From: an uncultured Bacteriovorax sp.
Lineage (GTDB): Bacteria; Bdellovibrionota; Bacteriovoracia; Bacteriovoracales; Bacteriovoracaceae
Direction: 5' to 3'
DNA: 64,000 nucleotides
Assembly: GCA_964456675.1 (NCBI GenBank)
Contig: CAYWBR010000002.1
Location: 19,215-83,214, forward strand
The notes under the pieces are model-generated. The model saw nothing but the letters and a program-made list of their open reading frames with translations, searched no databases and had not been told where the DNA came from. A program made the position numbers and the translations under genes. Within the stretch, counting starts at the first letter, position 1. Each line of letters begins with the position of its first letter. This document shows positions 18,518 through 24,968 of this stretch, piece after piece.

Positions 18518-19351
18518 TCAACCTAAAAGTTTTAGTGCAGCTTGACCTTGAGCATTTGCTTGAGAAAGTACTGAAGTACCAGCATTCGTTAAGATGTTCA
18601 TCTTAGTATTCTTTGCCGATTCCATTGCAAAATCTGTGTCGCGAATTCGAGAGTTTGCAGCAGACAAGTTTTCAGATGAAATCTGTAAATTGTTTATTGT
18701 CGATGACAATCTGTTTTGAATCGCACCAAGCTCTGCTCTTTGTCCTGAAACATTTTGAAGAGCTGTATCAATAGTGGCCAGTGATGCCTGAGATCCATCT
18801 TTTGAACCTACTGTTAGCTCTTGAATTCCAAGTGCAGACATTCCGGCATTTGTTCTAGCGGCATCGTACTTAATTCTATCTTGGAAATCGTCATTATTGA
18901 TACCAACTTGGAAATCAAATTTATCCCCAGCACCATTTAAAAGTTTTTTACCGTTAAACTCTGTTGAAGATGAAATTCTTTCAATCTCTTGCTTTAAGTT
19001 CTGAAACTCAAGATCAGTAAACTTTCTTTCGTCATCACCTACTGTATCAGAAGCAGATTGTACTGATAATTCTCTTAATCTTACTAAAATGTTAGAAACC
19101 TCATTCAAACCACCTTCTGCTGTTTGAATCAATGAAATACCATCATTCGCGTTTCTTTCAGCTTGGTTAACACCACGAATTTGTGCTTTTAACTTTTCTG
19201 AAATCGCAAGTCCTGCAGCATCGTCTGCCGCACGTACAATTCTTGTACCAGATGATAATTTCCCTAGTGAGTTGGCTTGCTCAGTGTTGTTTGCGCTTAA
19301 TGTTCTCTGAGCTGCTAAAGACGTGACGTTGGTGTTGATACGTAATCCCAT
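18518..19351 (-). CDS. fliC: Flagellin (minimal, D0-D1 only)
   Basis: RINTN, LSSGTRI..AADDAAGLAI and SRIRDTDFA motifs. 277 aa with a GGAGG SD. Confidence 0.97.
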   Translation of the reverse strand: MGLRINTNVTSLAAQRTLSANNTEQANSLGKLSSGTRIVRAADDAAGLAISEKLKAQIRGVNQAERNANDGISLIQTAEGGLNEVSNILVRLRELSVQSASDTVGDDERKFTDLEFQNLKQEIERISSSTEFNGKKLLNGAGDKFDFQVGINNDDFQDRIKYDAARTNAGMSALGIQELTVGSKDGSQASLATIDTALQNVSGQRAELGAIQNRLSSTINNLQISSENLSAANSRIRDTDFAMESAKNTKMNILTNAGTSVLSQANAQGQAALKLLG

Positions 19352-19517: not shown

Positions 19518-19652
19518 GGAAAAAATTGCTTTTTTTTAAAAAAATTAGTCAGTCATCCTGATTAAAATGATCAAATTCTAAACAAGCTTTTTCCTTATAT
19601 ACGTCGATAAAAAATGATCACATTTTTAGATTAATTTCCGATAAGAAATCTA

Positions 19653-22442
19653 ATGGAAAACAAAAAAGCGCTCGTCATTATCCCTCCCTACTCTGAACCT
19701 CTTAAAAAACTAGGGGAAATACTTTCAACTCCTGAAGAAGCTGAGTCAATTGATATATATGTTCTAGAAGATTTGAAAGAAGCTGGTCAATTGATCCCAA
19801 CATTAGGACAGTGTCTTATTGTCATCGCGAACGCAAAAAAATGCGCGCTATTCTTACAAGAAAACAGATGGGCAATATCTAAAAATCACTCAAAAGTAAT
19901 TTTGATGACCCCAAAAGAAATTCCCCAAAAAACCTTAATGAAATTTCTAAAAATTGGGCTTACTGAGGTAATTTTAGAAACACTTCCTCCTAAAAGCTTA
20001 CTTTACAAAATCAAACTACTTCTGCGCTCTGTAAAAGGACAAGAAAGTAAAAAAGAAGAAAATATCAACGTTAAAAGTATGCTTGACATGAGTCAGCAGA
20101 AAAATGACGACGAACAACAACGAGTTGAAAAAGGAATTATTGCAGACACAGAAGTAAGTGCCCCCTCAGAAGACAAAGAAAAAAAAATGATCATTGAAGA
20201 AGATACTGATTCATTTGATTATCTAAAAGCAAAAAAGAAAAACCAGCAAGAAGACAATGTCATTGACACTCACTGGAAATCAAAAAGAAACGACACTCAA
20301 ATCTCGTTAGAAGATGGCGAAGAAATTGAAAAGAAAAAATCATCTGCAGAAGAGATATCAACTTATTACAAAAATGAGCGTAAAGCTAATCTAGATCTTG
20401 ACTTCATAGCAGACGAAAACATGTCAGGGAAAGCTTCAGGAACTGAGGATGAGTCTACGTTTAGCATCGAAAAACTTAAGCAAGCAATGCTAACAGAGAT
20501 TGAACTTGAGGATAGTTTAAAAGATAAGAAAAAAAACAACTCCCTCGAAGAAGACGATGAAGATATTTATCATAGAGAACAAAAAGAAACAGAGATCAAT
20601 CTAGAAAAAGAAGATACAAAAAAAAGCGATACCTTCGAAGATGAATCTGACAACGAAAGAAAAAGAAAAAATGAAGACGTCACAGAGCTTAGTTTAGAGA
20701 AAGAAGAAAAAGCTAAATCTGACGAAAATCTAAACCTAATCGACAATTACCTCAAGGGTAAAATCAACAACGACAAATCCATCATGGAAGTTGACGAAGA
20801 AGAATTTGTTGATAAAAAAATCAATGAAATAAATGAGGATGATAAGGACGACTCGACTCAAAACAATCTATCGCTAGATGAAAATGAAGAAAGCGAAATG
20901 AGTCATGCTTCTAACTTAAAAGAAGAAATAAATAACACCGATCAAGAAAACGAAAAAGGTTTTCAACGTGAAGAAAGCGCAGAAGATGGCTTTATGCGCG
21001 GAAAAATTTCAAAAAACACCGATCTAAATCTACAAGAAGAAAAAAAAGATTCAAAGACGCAACAAGAAGAATCTAACAATAAAGAACGTGAAAATAGTCA
21101 CAAAAACTCACTAGACGATCTTGATGATTCATTAAATGATATTAACAAGAAAACTAAAACCAATGAAGCTGATGAAGAAATTGATAACTCAGATAAAAAT
21201 GCCGAAGTTGACCTGACTGATGAATCAGATGATCTACGAAAAAAATTACAAAACGAACTAGACCTAGAATTAGAAATGTCATCTGATGATGACACCCCTG
21301 AGAATCAAGATCAAAATAAAAAAAATGGTGTAAACAAACTTCAACGTTTAACTGTCGATGATGAAAATGAAAATAATAATAAATTAGAAAAATTAAATGA
21401 AGATGATGCTCGGTCTCAAAATCTTAAAAAATTAGCAAATACACAATTAGAATTTGAAAAGGAACATGATCTTGACTCAACTAATGCCTCAGTAGAACAT
21501 CTAGATAAATATATGCGAAGTCGATCTTTAAAATCTGAAGATCAAGACTGGAATATTGGCACAAAGAAAAAAGATACAGCGATAGCGCTACAAAAAGGTA
21601 AAAAAGACGACGTAAATTTAAATTTGTTGCCTGACTTCAAAGATGCGGGTGAACAAACAATCGATTATCGCAAATTAAAAGAAGAATTTGAACTTCTAAA
21701 AGATGGTGCCAATCTTCCTCCTGACGAAATAGAAAAAATTCGAAAAATGATTCGTGGTGAAAGTGAAGATAGTGAGGATCTATATCAAGTATTCTCGCCA
21801 AGCCCTAACGGTGTAGACTTTCTTGTTGAAATTGCCATTGATTTGTACGACACAAGCATAAAACCTCGCGATATTTTTGAAAAAATAGCAAAAAAAATTC
21901 ATGAACAAAAAGGATTTGCTACTTTTTTACAATACTCAAAACCAACCGAAATAAAAGAAATATACTCAGTATTTCAAATAACTGAAAACGGATTTATCAG
22001 CGATGAAACTCGTAATGCTTTTTCTGAAATAAAAAAAGAAAATGATTTATTTAAGACACAAGCAACCTACTCACTGGCAAATTGGAAATGCACTGAAATA
22101 CTCGACAAAAACAATCGCCCCTGGGAAGACACTGAACTTCCAACTTGGGCACAAAATGAACTTCAAAACAAGAAAGTTGAATATATATATCCAATGTTTG
22201 ATGGACTAGATCGAATGGGTCATATCTACATATGGTTTCCTGACGGAATCGTCGCTAATGAAGCCCGAAATATCGATATTATTATAGAGGCCTCAAGACC
22301 TTTGTTTCTTGATCAAATAATTAGATCATCAAAAAATACCAAGATTAATGATGCTGATGAAAATGAAGATAACCAAAATAATCAAAAAACGGGAATATTT
22401 AGCGGAATCACATCTCTTTTTGGCAAAAAAAAAGTGGGATAG
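19653..22442 (+). CDS. Pseudo-receiver domain + long acidic disordered region + C-terminal globular (GAF-like?) domain
   Basis: Residues 1-125 follow the REC pattern (VILMTP, FLKIGLTEVI, SLLYKIKLLLR) but lack the acidic pocket and conserved Lys. About 550 aa are D/E/K/N-rich. Confidence 0.75.
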   Translation: MENKKALVIIPPYSEPLKKLGEILSTPEEAESIDIYVLEDLKEAGQLIPTLGQCLIVIANAKKCALFLQENRWAISKNHSKVILMTPKEIPQKTLMKFLKIGLTEVILETLPPKSLLYKIKLLLRSVKGQESKKEENINVKSMLDMSQQKNDDEQQRVEKGIIADTEVSAPSEDKEKKMIIEEDTDSFDYLKAKKKNQQEDNVIDTHWKSKRNDTQISLEDGEEIEKKKSSAEEISTYYKNERKANLDLDFIADENMSGKASGTEDESTFSIEKLKQAMLTEIELEDSLKDKKKNNSLEEDDEDIYHREQKETEINLEKEDTKKSDTFEDESDNERKRKNEDVTELSLEKEEKAKSDENLNLIDNYLKGKINNDKSIMEVDEEEFVDKKINEINEDDKDDSTQNNLSLDENEESEMSHASNLKEEINNTDQENEKGFQREESAEDGFMRGKISKNTDLNLQEEKKDSKTQQEESNNKERENSHKNSLDDLDDSLNDINKKTKTNEADEEIDNSDKNAEVDLTDESDDLRKKLQNELDLELEMSSDDDTPENQDQNKKNGVNKLQRLTVDDENENNNKLEKLNEDDARSQNLKKLANTQLEFEKEHDLDSTNASVEHLDKYMRSRSLKSEDQDWNIGTKKKDTAIALQKGKKDDVNLNLLPDFKDAGEQTIDYRKLKEEFELLKDGANLPPDEIEKIRKMIRGESEDSEDLYQVFSPSPNGVDFLVEIAIDLYDTSIKPRDIFEKIAKKIHEQKGFATFLQYSKPTEIKEIYSVFQITENGFISDETRNAFSEIKKENDLFKTQATYSLANWKCTEILDKNNRPWEDTELPTWAQNELQNKKVEYIYPMFDGLDRMGHIYIWFPDGIVANEARNIDIIIEASRPLFLDQIIRSSKNTKINDADENEDNQNNQKTGIFSGITSLFGKKKVG

Positions 22443-22451
22443 GTAAATAAA

Positions 22452-23504
22452 ATGAAAGCAGAAATTGACTTCTTTTTAATTGATAAAGAACACTTGAAAG
22501 GTCAACGAACTTTTCCATTTCAACTATTCATCATGAATCCTATTCATAAAAAATTTACTCTTTTTTTAAATGCCAATCGACCAATGTCTAAAGAACTAGA
22601 TAATTTTTTAGACTATATAGTTTCTAAAGGTGGCTTTTTGGCCGTTTTAAGAAAACAAAAAAAGACTTTCTTAAAGGCCCTCGAATTAAACGAAGATGAT
22701 GTGCCTACCCTTAAAAAGCGAGAATTACACGATTTAGAAAAAGAACAGATCATGTATAGCAAATTGAAAGAAATATGGATTGAAAAACATGGTGTTTTTG
22801 GCTTTTTAACAGAGTTTGAAAAGGCCGCAAAAACAGACAACTTTGATAGAATAATTGAATACACACGAGTAGAGATATTAGCATTTAGTGTTAATCGAAA
22901 TAGCACAAATACATTTGCAATAGAATTGGCCAAAAAATTTCTTATTAAAGATAATTTTATCAATCGAATTGTAGCTACCGCATATTATGTTGCTAAAAAC
23001 TTAAATATATTAGACGAAGATTCGTTATCAGACATTATAGTAGGAAGCTATCTCATTCATCTTGCAAATACTCAAATGTCACTTTCCATAAGTAGAAAAG
23101 CACAGCAAGAATATTTTGACGCTGAAAAAAAGTTCTACCAAAAACATCCACTACTGGCTTTTCACTTATTAAAACGCAGTCAAATCAATGTGAATGAACG
23201 AGTAAAACGCATTGTTAATGAGCATCACGAGCGAAACGGAGGACGTGGTTTTCCAATGGAAAAAGCAGGAGACGCAATTGAGCCACTGGCCTTATTAGTA
23301 GGAGCTGTCGCTCACCTATTCGAATATTCCACTGGAAAAGTGAACGGCAGTAAGCAATCCCTTCGCTCCGTTATTTTTCATATAAAAAATCGTTCAATTA
23401 TGCCTGGACTAGAATTTGATTTCGGCGATACTATATATAACGCAATTACAACTTTAATTGATACAGAGAAAAAAGAAGAAGATAATTTAAACTTAGCTGC
23501 TTAG
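22452..23504 (+). CDS. Degenerate HD-GYP-domain protein
   Basis: KHP..AFHLL and HHERNGGRGFP match the HD-GYP core. The HD dyad reads IHLAN. Confidence 0.75.
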   Translation: MKAEIDFFLIDKEHLKGQRTFPFQLFIMNPIHKKFTLFLNANRPMSKELDNFLDYIVSKGGFLAVLRKQKKTFLKALELNEDDVPTLKKRELHDLEKEQIMYSKLKEIWIEKHGVFGFLTEFEKAAKTDNFDRIIEYTRVEILAFSVNRNSTNTFAIELAKKFLIKDNFINRIVATAYYVAKNLNILDEDSLSDIIVGSYLIHLANTQMSLSISRKAQQEYFDAEKKFYQKHPLLAFHLLKRSQINVNERVKRIVNEHHERNGGRGFPMEKAGDAIEPLALLVGAVAHLFEYSTGKVNGSKQSLRSVIFHIKNRSIMPGLEFDFGDTIYNAITTLIDTEKKEEDNLNLAA

Positions 23505-23538
23505 ATTGTTATTCATAATATATTTTCGGGAGAGTAAC

Positions 23539-23934
23539 ATGGCTTTGAAAGCTGACATTAAAATTCTTGTTGTGGACGATATGGCGACAATGAGAAAAAT
23601 TATTAAAAACATGCTTACACAAATTGGATTTACCAACATTACAGAAGCTGATGACGGTGCAACTGCATGGCCTTTAATGGAAAGTGCAATTAAAGAGGGA
23701 AAGCCATTTGAATTTATCGTTTCTGACTGGAACATGCCTCAAATGAGTGGTCTCGATTTATTAAAAAAAGTAAGAGAAACTAAAGGTCTTGAAAAACTTC
23801 CGTTTCTAATGATTACGGCAGAAGCCGAGCAAGGAAACGTTGTTATAGCTGTTAAGGCAGGTGTAAGTAACTTTATTGTAAAACCATTTTCTGCCCAAGT
23901 TCTAAAAGAAAAAATTGATAAAATATTCAAATAG
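23539..23934 (+). CDS. cheY: Chemotaxis response regulator CheY
   Basis: VVDD, SDWNMP, MITAE and VKPF are all intact. Start moved to ATG 23539, which follows a GGGAGAG SD. Confidence 0.93.
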   Translation: MALKADIKILVVDDMATMRKIIKNMLTQIGFTNITEADDGATAWPLMESAIKEGKPFEFIVSDWNMPQMSGLDLLKKVRETKGLEKLPFLMITAEAEQGNVVIAVKAGVSNFIVKPFSAQVLKEKIDKIFK

Positions 23935-23945
23935 GTCCGTTTAGC

Positions 23946-24443
23946 ATGACGTTTATAAATGATCCCATGATGAAAGAGATTGTTGATGATTTTTGCATCG
24001 AAGCTGAAGGTTTATTCGACCAGATGGATGAGTGCATTCGAAAATTAGAAGACAACCCTCTAGATACTAAAGAGTTAGAAAAGTATGGGCAAATGATTGA
24101 TCGGATTATGGGTGCTGCGAAATCAATTGGCGCCTCTGAAATTGCTACTTTTTGCGAGCTTGGGAAAGTTATTGGATATAAATCGTCACAAACAAGAGAA
24201 GTCCCACTTCTTGAAGTAGTTATCGCAATTTTAGGCGATACGGTAGATATGTTAAGAAAAATGATTAAAGCGCTAAAAGTGGGAGATGCTACTTGTCTTA
24301 ATAAATTGAATACCAAAGCGTTTGTAACTAGATTGCAATGGCTTTCGGCCAAATTTAAAGACATTGAAAGATCTTCTTGCAAGATTGATGGTAACTTAAA
24401 CCAGAATTCAATCGATGATTTATTACAAAGTTTAGGATTATAA
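23946..24443 (+). CDS. Hpt-like helical protein lacking histidine, with a CheZ-like C-terminal peptide
   Basis: CheA-P1/Hpt-like pattern (F..EAE.L...L..LE.NP). The H-box reads IDRIMGAA and the protein ends SIDDLLQSLGL. Confidence 0.7.
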   Translation: MTFINDPMMKEIVDDFCIEAEGLFDQMDECIRKLEDNPLDTKELEKYGQMIDRIMGAAKSIGASEIATFCELGKVIGYKSSQTREVPLLEVVIAILGDTVDMLRKMIKALKVGDATCLNKLNTKAFVTRLQWLSAKFKDIERSSCKIDGNLNQNSIDDLLQSLGL

Positions 24444-24458
24444 AATATTGGAGTCTAT

Positions 24459-24968
24459 ATGGCAGGTGAGTCGCGGTTCATTGAGTTTTCTAAACCATTT
24501 ATTGATGCAGCTAAAAACGTTTTTGAAACAATGGTTTTTACTAAATTAGATACGTCTAAGCCCACAATAAAAAATGACAATATTTCTAAGGGGGACATTT
24601 CTGCAGTATTAGGACTTTCTGGAGAAGTAGAAAAAAATGGTTCAAAAGTTCCCTATAAAGCCATGCTTGTCATATCATTTCCATATGAAACATATTTCAA
24701 GGTTGCAGGTGCAATGCTGTCAGAAACCTATACATCTTATTGTCCTGAAATTCATGATGTGGGTGGAGAAATTGCCAATATGATTATGGGAAATGCTAAG
24801 CGAGATTTAAAAACTATGGGATATTCATCAAATATGGCGATTCCATCTATGATCGAAGGTAAAAATCATACAATTAAATATCCCAATGGGACAACCGTAG
24901 TGTTAATTCCATTTCTAAGCGCCCATGGTGAAATGTATATGGAACTTTGCTATACAGAATCTGAATAA
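24459..24968 (+). CDS. cheX: Chemotaxis phosphatase CheX
   Basis: ISAVLGLSG, GEIANMIMGN (ExxN) and MAIPSMIEG motifs. Confidence 0.9.
   Translation: MAGESRFIEFSKPFIDAAKNVFETMVFTKLDTSKPTIKNDNISKGDISAVLGLSGEVEKNGSKVPYKAMLVISFPYETYFKVAGAMLSETYTSYCPEIHDVGGEIANMIMGNAKRDLKTMGYSSNMAIPSMIEGKNHTIKYPNGTTVVLIPFLSAHGEMYMELCYTESE

Follow-up and report, generated by a model that had tools for sequence, protein, structure and literature searches.

What might a predatory bacterium gain from a 929-aa protein, annotated as "hypothetical" in every source, whose gene lies between a flagellin gene and a gene for a degenerate HD-GYP protein? Prey strikes by predatory bacteria of the Bacteriovorax and Bdellovibrio type depend on fast swimming with a polar flagellum, and little is known about the control of their motor. 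We analyzed a stretch of 64,000 nucleotides from an uncultured Bacteriovorax sp. (the window), in which the gene has the following surroundings:

18518..19351, - strand: flagellin gene, divergent (Pfam Flagellin_N, Flagellin_C)
19517-19491, - strand: sigma28 promoter of the flagellin gene, TAAAGTGT-N11-ACCGATTA (consensus)
19618..19644, + strand: sigma28-like promoter, -35-like TCAC(ATTT), then the -10 8-mer TCCGATAA (19637-19644)
19653..22442, + strand: whole open reading frame (P0001), 929 aa
22452..23504, + strand: gene for the degenerate HD-GYP protein (Pfam HD_5, 6e-11), beginning 9 nt downstream of the 929-aa stop codon
23536-23934, + strand: CheY (Pfam)
23946-24443, + strand: Hpt-like protein of 165 aa, His-less (Pfam)
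24459-24968, + strand: CheX (Pfam)

The 929-aa protein is a new, uncharacterized family assembled from known parts. Scans of the entire protein against Pfam and NCBIfam returned no family, no PDB sequence matched it, and a literature search did not find a paper on the family. Using a profile search, we identified 283 clusters at 50% identity, and the best 150 of these 283 matches are all family members or fragments with the same architecture: a pseudo-receiver, an acidic disordered region of ~520 aa, a GAF-like domain and, after a flexible linker, a C-terminal helix that is basic and amphipathic. The 33 homologs compared are 899–946 aa long (sd 11), and the MENKK N-terminus is a conserved start among them. 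A spurious low-complexity open reading frame was considered and rejected, because length, motifs and synteny are all kept in the family. All 28 named loci belong to Bacteriovoracaceae, Bacteriovoracales or "Oligoflexia" metagenome-assembled genomes. Since 27 aligned sequences of divergent members varied too much to seed the genome scan, a closer alignment and two N-terminal peptide patterns were used for it, and it under-samples the distribution outside Bacteriovoracaceae. The sequence was also found in DNA runs of metagenomes (wastewater, sludge and freshwater), and in no RNA runs.

The gene keeps constant company. In every locus that reaches that far, it is adjoined by the divergent flagellin gene, and a sigma28-like promoter is located 2–24 nt upstream of its ATG in 32/32 loci. 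The pattern NNCGA[ATC]A[AT] occurs within 45 nt upstream of the start in all 32, as opposed to 2.3 on average, and 8 at most, in shuffles, and a T(C/T/A)A block stands at a constant distance upstream. The flagellin promoters of the same loci, TAAAG(C/T)TT-N11-NCCGA(A/T)A(A/T), resemble this promoter, which we call sigma28-like on the basis of a consensus match with a weak -35. Its -10 element ends 8 nt 5' of the ATG in the window, so that a leaderless or near-leaderless mRNA is predicted. The gene directly downstream encodes the degenerate HD-GYP protein in all loci examined, including divergent loci without CheY and CheX, and in locus L034 the stop of the 929-aa-type gene overlaps the HD-GYP start codon. 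In all 6 aligned members of this neighboring protein, the HD pair is found as H-(L/I)-(A/G), and another residue stands in place of the Asp in HHExxDGxGYP; a homolog search with it was filled up by close relatives, and a PDB sequence search gave no match. The genes for CheY, the Hpt-like protein and CheX (23536..24968, + strand) are co-oriented with gaps of 11–31 nt, and no terminator-like site was found on the + strand within 19653-24968. This trio occurs only in the Bacteriovorax clade; of the 33 related loci that were compared, 23 are syntenic for it, and most of the remaining ones end short of that point. It is absent from the loci of the members P0151 and P0090, and L018 and L032 have no Hpt-like or CheX match. 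CheY and CheX are not universal partners of the family.

The protein itself can be divided as follows:

19653..20036, + strand: pseudo-receiver domain, residues 1-128 (AlphaFold2 and Foldseek)
20037..21641, + strand: acidic disordered region, residues 129-663 (composition, pLDDT)
20259..20288, + strand: motif island VIDTHWKSKR (203-212), with T206, W208 and K209 invariant
20352..20378, + strand: motif copy EISTYYKNE (234-242), family consensus IDxYYRGK
20736..20762, + strand: motif copy LIDNYLKGK (362-370), family consensus LGGYLKGK
20979..21005, + strand: motif copy EDGFMRGKI (443-451), by motif pattern
21492..21563, + strand: motif island VEHLDKYMRSRS...DQDWNIGT (614-637), with R622, K627 and W633 invariant
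21645..21695, + strand: GEQTIDYRKLKEEF island (665-681), predicted helix (conservation; AlphaFold2 helix 672-687)
21804..22355, + strand: GAF-like domain, residues 718-901 (AlphaFold2 domain model and Foldseek)
22356..22388, + strand: variable polar linker, residues 902-912 (identity, pLDDT <50)
22389..22439, + strand: C-terminal tail TGIFSGITSLFGKKKVG (913-929), putative membrane-targeting sequence (hydrophobic moment, conservation)

For the N-terminal domain, AlphaFold2 predicts five beta-alpha units at residues 5-126, that is, a CheY-like (beta-alpha)5 fold, with pLDDT 70–86. Foldseek aligned this model with REC domains at TMt 0.60–0.74 and rmsd 3.0–4.0, including KdpE (1zh2; TMt 0.74, rmsd 3.1) and PmrA (7m0s; TMt 0.73), and the best match was 4dad (E 4.5e-5), deposited as a "putative pilus assembly-related protein". 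The REC assignment rests on this predicted fold: REC (PF00072) gave no Pfam match in the 929-aa protein at E<=0.1, the N-terminal pieces of 15 members gave scattered chance matches at E<=1 and none to REC, a profile search of PDB sequences with the domain returned no receiver and nothing meaningful, and hhalign of the N-terminal profile against the neighboring CheY gave a probability of 0.5%, i.e., no relation. A preliminary description of this DNA had proposed a REC-like N-terminus without the DD pair, the phospho-Asp and the Lys. Registration of the active-site positions on the predicted strands agrees with this, placing P11-P12 after beta1 where Asp-Asp would be, A59/N60 after beta3 at the position of the phospho-Asp, and E109 after beta5 at that of the Lys, all of them family-wide. 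The Thr/Ser at T86 is the sole receiver signature residue retained throughout the family. Beta5 is followed by the family motif E-(T/S/P)-x-(P/A)-P-K, and the alpha4-beta5-alpha5 segment (87-126) shows the highest conservation in the whole protein.

The same description had counted about 550 acidic low-complexity residues after this domain; their acidic and disordered character was borne out (28.6% D+E, pLDDT mostly <50, with a few low-confidence helices in the AlphaFold2 model), while the length had to be corrected to 535 aa. The region further contains 16.3% K+R and 3 Pro, and has a net charge of -66. It is 18% identical to that of distant members, yet the total length of the protein stays within 899–946 aa (sd 11), and it bears conserved motif islands. 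VIDTHWKSKR is the first among five copies of acidic-x-(I/L)-D-x-aromatic-aromatic/L/M-(K/R)-(G/S/N)-(K/R/E), a pattern that was defined post hoc and of which 0.04 copies are expected from shuffles. In the GEQTIDYRKLKEEF island, I670 and Y672 show no or almost no variation, and this is also true of the widest alignment. Short motifs are tandemly amplified in some family members, and that of the GEQTIDYRKLKEEF island has four tandem occurrences in member P0166.

The C-terminal domain was modeled with a core pLDDT of 86–93, and its Foldseek matches are almost all GAF domains, with probabilities of 0.95–1.0 and TMt 0.5–0.62 against isolated GAF domains (CodY 8c7u, E 6.9e-4; 5ey1_B, TMt 0.62; 2b18, TMt 0.58; 3k2n; 3eea; PDE6). 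The GAF-like strand pair YIYPMF...MGHIYI that had been read from the sequence was recovered as a predicted beta-hairpin, VEYIYPMF (842-849) / RMGHIYIWF (854-862). W811, W824, ELPxW (828-832), P847 and G856 are conserved, and the residues conserved in the widest alignment are mostly structural (Pro, Gly, Trp). Among the Pfam matches of the C-terminal pieces of 16 members at E<=1, which were scattered chance matches, the GAF families PF01590, PF13185 and PF13492 were absent, and a PDB profile search with the domain gave no match at E<=10. Like that of the receiver, the GAF assignment is one of fold, with TM-scores that are moderate (0.5–0.62).

Identity to distant members is 21% in the linker versus 41% in the tail that follows it. 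Within the tail, I915, F916, I919, L922 and F923 share one helical face (spacing i, i+1, i+4, i+7, i+8), followed by KKK. The best 11-mer hydrophobic moment is 0.57–0.70 on the Fauchere-Pliska scale (0.63 in the 929-aa protein, with a median of 0.61 over 146 members), and the net charge is +4/+5 (+4 for the tail TGIFSGITSLFGKKKVG). F923 and K927 are invariant among the 33 close members, 138 of the 146 full-length members have a hydrophobic-aromatic pair within the last 12 residues, and GFLGRLFGKKAS and KKGFLKGLFNKKAS are forms found in divergent members. The tail is in other words both amphipathic and conserved, which sustains the earlier comparison with the MinD/FlhG targeting sequence. A shuffle test over 14 residues was marginal (P about 0.02–0.16), the polar face consists of Ser/Gly/Thr versus Lys/Arg in MinD, and AlphaFold2 places a helix at 916-922 at low confidence, with a domain-only model showing no helix there. 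We consider the tail a putative MinD/FlhG-like membrane-targeting sequence by which the protein may bind the membrane. It has no transmembrane segment, the highest 19-residue Kyte-Doolittle mean (1.35) falling within the receiver fold.

With moderate confidence, we propose that the 929-aa protein belongs to the late flagellar regulon and works in the cytoplasm as a scaffold, peripherally tethered to the inner membrane. Because it is always encoded beside flagellin and the degenerate HD-GYP protein, and because of its domain architecture, it probably organizes flagellar signaling proteins at the membrane. We infer membrane binding, GAF-like self-association, a polar location and each of its partners, as follows. 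The tail would act as a targeting sequence of the MinD/FlhG type that binds weakly alone, so that stable membrane binding would need at least two copies, which self-association of the adjacent GAF-like domain could bring together. From this anchor, the acidic chain may extend into the cytoplasm as a flexible spacer, a role suggested by the conservation of length despite 18% identity. The aromatic-basic motifs of the chain, five or more in number, would together with the TIDY helix (the GEQTIDYRKLKEEF island) form multivalent docking sites, and the conserved alpha4-beta5-alpha5 face of the phosphorylation-dead receiver a constitutive docking surface. The main client would be the degenerate HD-GYP protein encoded alongside, which is probably a sensor of cyclic dinucleotides and not an enzyme; in Bacteriovorax, CheY, CheX and the His-less Hpt-like protein may be clients as well. 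In this way, the membrane, probably that of the flagellated pole, could become the site at which signal termination or second-messenger control of the motor is concentrated, comparable to ChePep with CheZ in Helicobacter. A bolder form of the proposal, possible but doubtful, is that the protein organizes a kinase-less, largely pseudo-enzyme hub at the base of a sheathed polar flagellum. There, GAF-like self-association would gate the weak tail, the acidic chain with its aromatic-basic motifs would bring the dead HD-GYP sensor together with CheY, CheX and the His-less Hpt-like protein at the membrane, and the assembly would be a sink for phosphorylated CheY or a second-messenger-gated brake, in a design independent of ChePep.

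Compared with known systems, the closest functional analog appears to be ChePep of Helicobacter, rather than RomR or HubP. ChePep (the poly-E-rich protein HP0322/HPG27_303 of Helicobacter pylori, also found in other Campylobacterota) has an N-terminal receiver-like domain followed by an acidic, presumably unfolded chain, as does the 929-aa protein; it is polar and regulates chemotaxis (PMC3143842). Its D+E content averages 29.6%, versus 28.6% in our acidic region, a likeness of architecture and composition. ChePep is also lineage-restricted, chemotaxis-linked and located at the flagellar pole, with a poorly conserved sequence whose composition is kept (PMC3143842). It differs in retaining KPFLPT with Lys109 (PMC3143842), where the 929-aa family has Glu109, and neither a GAF-like domain nor a C-terminal amphipathic tail has been described for it, whereas the 929-aa protein has both. 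The taxa differ as well (Campylobacterota versus Bacteriovoracales), and so do the partners, CheZ for ChePep and presumably the degenerate HD-GYP protein, with or without CheX, for the 929-aa protein.

Individual parts find their counterparts elsewhere. Escherichia coli MinD ends in ...KKGFLKRLFGG. The tails of MinD/FlhG and of the 929-aa family (cf. GFLGRLFGKKAS, KKGFLKGLFNKKAS) have in common the form hydrophobic-hydrophobic-x-x-hydrophobic-x-x-(L/F)-F-G with basic flanks. In each, a flexible linker leads into a short amphipathic helix at the very C-terminal end. The MinD tail binds membranes only at a valency of at least 2, and FlhG uses the same device (PMC6803595). We rejected membership of the ParA/MinD ATPase family: the protein has no deviant Walker A domain and no Pfam/NCBIfam match, and its folds are REC-like and GAF-like; lacking a ParA/MinD ATPase domain, it stands outside the MinD family. 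The switch in MinD is ATP, whereas any switch here would be GAF-mediated self-association. Phosphorylation-dead receivers serve as localization or docking modules in TadZ/CpaE and in FrzS of Myxococcus, a receiver fold without the phospho-acceptor Asp (PMC1974792), and the 929-aa protein has this fold in common with them. In FrzS, however, the receiver is followed by a coiled coil, and in TadZ by a MinD-like ATPase, and both lack the acidic disordered region, the GAF-like domain, the tail and any sequence similarity to our protein. HubP/FimV and RomR resemble it in having a long acidic or low-complexity cytoplasmic region that brings motility or chemotaxis clients to the pole, and RomR additionally in its N-terminal receiver domain. 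RomR can be phosphorylated on an Asp, and it has a Pro-rich linker and a C-terminus rich in Glu. We rejected it as an identification, as the 929-aa protein has no phospho-Asp, 3 Pro in 535 residues, and a C-terminus made up of the GAF-like domain and basic tail. HubP/FimV, which has a LysM domain and a transmembrane helix as its anchor and ends in a C-terminal FimV motif, was likewise rejected, for the 929-aa protein has none of these and matches no Pfam/NCBIfam family. The preliminary description had called the protein not clearly RomR or HubP; its idea of a polar hub we retain as conjecture. Finally, HD-GYP domains are typically preceded in the same chain by REC and GAF input domains, and in RpfG-type REC-HD-GYP and GAF-HD-GYP proteins the same folds occur that are here encoded directly upstream of an HD-GYP gene. 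Here, however, they reside on a separate polypeptide, 590 residues apart, with a dead REC and a degenerate HD-GYP. We counted 3eea, a GAF/HD protein among the Foldseek GAF matches, in favor of this domain logic.

In an alternative reading, the 929-aa protein is a ligand-sensing input module. Its GAF-like domain would recognize a small ligand, either a nucleotide (cyclic or dinucleotide) or, as in CodY, an amino acid, and the protein would then regulate in trans the degenerate HD-GYP protein encoded next to it, with a secondary part for the tail and the acidic region. The closest fold matches, i.e., the ligand-binding CodY and PDE6 GAF domains and the GAF/HD fusion 3eea, fit this reading, as do the invariant close pairing with the HD_5 gene (with stop/start overlap in L034) and the conserved Trp, Pro and Gly cluster at 811-856. 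We nevertheless think it unlikely, considering that the residues conserved in the widest alignment are mostly structural, that ligand-binding residues cannot be mapped because no GAF family matches in sequence, and that the conserved tail, conserved length and repeated motifs would be left unexplained. Ligand sensing is compatible with the scaffold reading.

The tail, in turn, could be a protein-binding or autoinhibitory peptide that inserts, for example, into a hydrophobic groove, whether of a partner or of the GAF-like domain itself, leaving the protein soluble and without an anchor. The equivalent helix of monomeric FlhG is indeed buried in a protein groove (PMC6803595), the polar face is rich in Gly/Ser, and helix confidence is low. 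On the other hand, the extreme C-terminal site, the i/i+1/i+4/i+7/i+8 face, the Lys/Arg flanks and the unconserved linker together form the signature of a peripheral membrane helix, divergent members have forms near-identical to MinD-type tails, and the occluded helix of FlhG remains a membrane anchor; we hold a non-anchoring tail to be decidedly improbable. A general pole-organizing condensate former of the PopZ/HubP type, in which the acidic chain with its stickers phase-separates and recruits many clients outside flagellar signaling, appears to us very improbable. Arguments for a flagellar role are the gene's constant place, with flagellin on one side and the HD-GYP gene on the other, its sigma28-like promoter and its CheY/CheX neighbors. 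In favor of a condensate former are the polyampholyte character of the chain (28.6% acidic, 16.3% basic) and the regular spacing of its aromatic-basic stickers, which are tandemly amplified in some members. Homology to PopZ, HubP or FimV was found neither with Pfam and NCBIfam nor among the best 150 of the 283 matches of the profile search.

Read as a membrane-tethered scaffold, the family, which is as constant beside flagellin as any flagellar gene, would be a second, independent regulator of the "dead receiver plus polyacidic chain" type besides ChePep, which would make it possible to test by comparison whether such chains serve as spacer, ruler or condensate. It would also provide a natural MinD-type tail behind a non-ATPase domain, and a way into the function of the neighboring degenerate HD-GYP, His-less Hpt-like and CheX genes. 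Were the protein only a passive tether, its interest would be limited to the Bacteriovorax-type lineage. The conserved repeated motifs of the acidic region, the invariant flagellin and degenerate HD-GYP partners and the conserved sigma28-like promoter are observations that go beyond the preliminary description.

The open reading frame occupies exactly 19653..22442 on the + strand, and its 929-residue product (P0001), no part of which was recognised by Pfam or NCBIfam, belongs to a real, conserved and uncharacterised family that brings known parts together in a new combination. Each of the four features given in the preliminary description was confirmed in this product. Using the C-terminal 260 residues as query, a word-seeded search returned 33 homologues whose full length is 899-946 aa; a single one is from Bacteriovorax sp. 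HI3, and all are annotated as unnamed or 'hypothetical'. When 1.84 billion representatives were searched exhaustively with a profile, 283 clusters at 50% identity were found; the best 150 of these all shared the architecture, either as full-length proteins (722-1107 aa) or as fragments of it, and no other families were found among them. We also scanned species-representative genomes with two N-terminal peptide patterns only, which yielded 28 loci that do not mark the family's outer limits, all in Bacteriovoracaceae, Bacteriovorax, Bacteriovoracales or 'Oligoflexia' MAGs. The window's organism itself is found in wastewater, sludge and freshwater metagenomes. The gene and its surroundings are laid out as follows.

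18518..19351, - strand: flagellin gene
19517-19491, - strand: flagellin promoter, TAAAGTGT-N11-ACCGATTA
19618-19644, + strand: predicted sigma28-like promoter of the 929-aa gene, TCAC...TCCGATAA
19653..22442, + strand: 929-aa gene
22452..23504, + strand: HD-GYP gene
23536..24968, + strand: CheY, Hpt-like and CheX genes

Wherever a related locus reaches far enough, the flagellin gene lies divergent from the 929-aa gene, and an HD_5 (HD-GYP-type) gene starts within a few bases 3' of it. This neighbour is degenerate in 6/6 aligned members (window 22452-23504 and the related loci L001, L003, L004, L005 and L034): H-(L/I)-(A/G) takes the place of the HD, and HHExxDGxGYP has lost its Asp. In members of the Bacteriovorax clade, the HD-GYP gene is followed by those for a canonical CheY (species differ, with identities of 78-93%), an Hpt-like protein of 165 aa and CheX. 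This cluster is also present in Bacteriovorax strain PP10 (L035). In the window, no terminator-like site was seen on the + strand within 19653-24968. The loci of two divergent members, P0151 (L034) and P0090, keep the flagellin and HD-GYP genes and miss CheY, Hpt-like and CheX at this site. This suggests that the trio was inserted or lost in a clade-specific way, and we take the 929-aa protein and the degenerate HD-GYP protein to be the core unit. In L034 (10276-11292) and the P0090 locus, no CheY, Hpt-like or CheX gene stands between the HD-GYP gene and a conserved Metallophos gene, and in L018 and L032 the Hpt-like and CheX genes likewise went undetected. The six aligned HD-GYP sequences also share an invariant C-terminal Ala-Ala (LAA, KAA or EAA), which recalls an ssrA-type degron. 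The mechanical CheY ORF begins at TTG 23506; its homologues are 131 aa long, starting at the equivalent of MALKADIK, so ATG 23536 is probably the true start.

Upstream of the 929-aa gene, the 8-mer G(A/C)CGA(A/T)AA was present in 32/32 loci, ending 2-24 nt (mostly 6-13 nt) before the ATG, with a T(C/T/A)A block about 16 nt further upstream. The flagellin promoters on the opposite strand read TAAAG(C/T)TT-N11-NCCGA(A/T)A(A/T). Sigma28 promoters have the consensus TAAA-N15-GCCGATAA, and the elements of both genes match this consensus. Judging from these motifs, we infer that the operon of the 929-aa gene belongs to the late flagellar regulon. At window 19618-19652 and the equivalent sites of L001-L035, the sigma28-like -10 element of most loci stops just 2-13 nt short of the ATG and no Shine-Dalgarno is visible, which makes a leaderless or nearly leaderless operon mRNA probable. 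L008, L027 and L029 differ: their leader is 24 nt long and contains a stretch resembling AGAGAG.

For the N-terminal domain, AlphaFold2 (33-sequence alignment) predicted a five-fold beta-alpha unit at residues 5-126, with pLDDT 70-86. The Foldseek matches of this domain were receiver domains, the lowest E-value being 4.5e-5; among them are 4dad ('putative pilus assembly-related protein'), KdpE (1zh2, TMt 0.74, rmsd 3.1), PmrA, ArcA, BfmR and CheY3. We assigned the key positions of the response regulator receiver domain (REC) by placing residues on the predicted strands: P11-P12 would then take the expected place of the acidic pair, A59/N60 that of the phospho-Asp and E109 that of the Lys, leaving Thr86 as the sole key residue kept. 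Divergent members likewise lack the key residues (...IFLxPLS..., ...SNPKKCA..., ...ECIVEPVxPK...). Since no sequence-level relation to REC was found and the likeness is confined to the predicted receiver fold, the domain is a pseudo-receiver at fold level, as the preliminary description had proposed from the missing acidic pair, phospho-Asp and Lys. No part of the protein is better conserved than the alpha4-beta5-alpha5 segment (87-126) of this domain. This face makes dimerisation and output contacts in true receivers, and here the segment may serve in constitutive docking.

The acidic stretch noted earlier was recovered at residues 129-663, which contain 28.6% D+E, 16.3% K+R and 3 prolines (net charge -66) and were modelled mostly at pLDDT <50, with a few low-confidence helices. 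Identity to distant members is 18% in this region, compared with 62% in the N-terminal and 36% in the C-terminal domain; despite this, total length varies little among the 33 close members (899-946 aa, sd 11), and in a wider set of 137 members the median region is 523 residues long with 28% acidic residues. Embedded in it are conserved islands (VIDTHWKSKR, IDxYYRGK, LGGYLKGK, (F/Y)MRGK, VDKIDTFYRSG...DQxW and GEQTIDYRKLKEEF). An aromatic-basic core occurs in five copies, versus 0.04 expected from composition; as this pattern was defined post hoc, after the data had been seen, conservation is the stronger argument for the motifs. In single members, short motifs are amplified in tandem and thus behave as independent modules: P0161 has a run of near-identical tandem copies of GPLKGKTSTDK(V/E)EQ, and P0166 has four copies of DLGEQTI(H/N)Y. 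Going by sequence, the motif set looks like a multivalent docking array. (L/V)xGKSNFKE is also repeated several times, alongside these two motifs, among P0161, P0175 and P0166.

Residues 655-929 were modelled separately from 16 sequences of the retrieved loci (core pLDDT 86-93), and nearly all Foldseek matches were GAF domains: CodY (8c7u, E 6.9e-4), 5ey1_B (TMt 0.62), 2b18 (TMt 0.58), PDE6 and cyanobacteriochrome GAFs, the sigma54-regulator GAF 3k2n and the GAF/HD protein 3eea. The VEYIYPMF / RMGHIYIWF strand pair, from which a GAF-like domain had been suggested (YIYPMF...MGHIYI), forms a hairpin in the AlphaFold2 model. The domain gave no GAF HMM match and no PDB sequence match, and 'GAF-like' holds at the level of the predicted fold only. 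After an unconserved linker (21% identity), the protein ends in TGIFSGITSLFGKKKVG, in which hydrophobic residues at i, i+1, i+4, i+7 and i+8 fall within a 120-degree helix arc and the net charge is about +4. For the best stretch of 11 residues, the hydrophobic moment reaches 0.57-0.70 among close members (median 0.61 over 146 members); the E. coli and B. subtilis MinD tails gave 0.41 and 0.33 in the same calculation. By a simple criterion, 138/146 members carry such a tail, likened to that of MinD in the preliminary description, divergent ones in the forms GFLGRLFGKKAS, KKGFLKGLFNKKAS or RGLLAKLFG. P0177, P0071 and P0073 end without it (...SQNKKKRL, ...KKREVDEE and ...KKKKDDEDEA), either through real losses or through truncated or extended gene calls. 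No transmembrane segment was found in the 929-aa protein.

Architecture, conservation, synteny and promoter motif, as the analysis shows them, are best read as those of a scaffold that is plausibly tethered peripherally to the membrane. Such a scaffold would bind the membrane and self-associate, gather partners and take a polar location. Self-association of the GAF-like domain would supply enough valency for the weak tail to hold the membrane; the MinD tail binds only when at least two copies act jointly, a device that FlhG also uses (PMC6803595). The acidic chain would act as a spacer of conserved length bearing docking motifs, and the dead receiver would add a docking surface. The scaffold would have the degenerate HD-GYP protein as a client, together with CheY, the Hpt-like protein and CheX in loci that encode them. 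Membership of RomR, HubP/FimV or MinD was considered, and each fails a defining feature. The nearest functional analogue of the proposed scaffold is ChePep, a polar protein that controls flagellar switching. Its N-terminal domain is receiver-like, its D+E content is 29.6%, and its composition matters more than its sequence (PMC3143842). However, ChePep keeps the Lys109 motif where the 929-aa protein has E109, and the GAF domain and tail present here do not appear in descriptions of ChePep. For the pseudo-receiver, FrzS provides a known case of a dead receiver in localisation.
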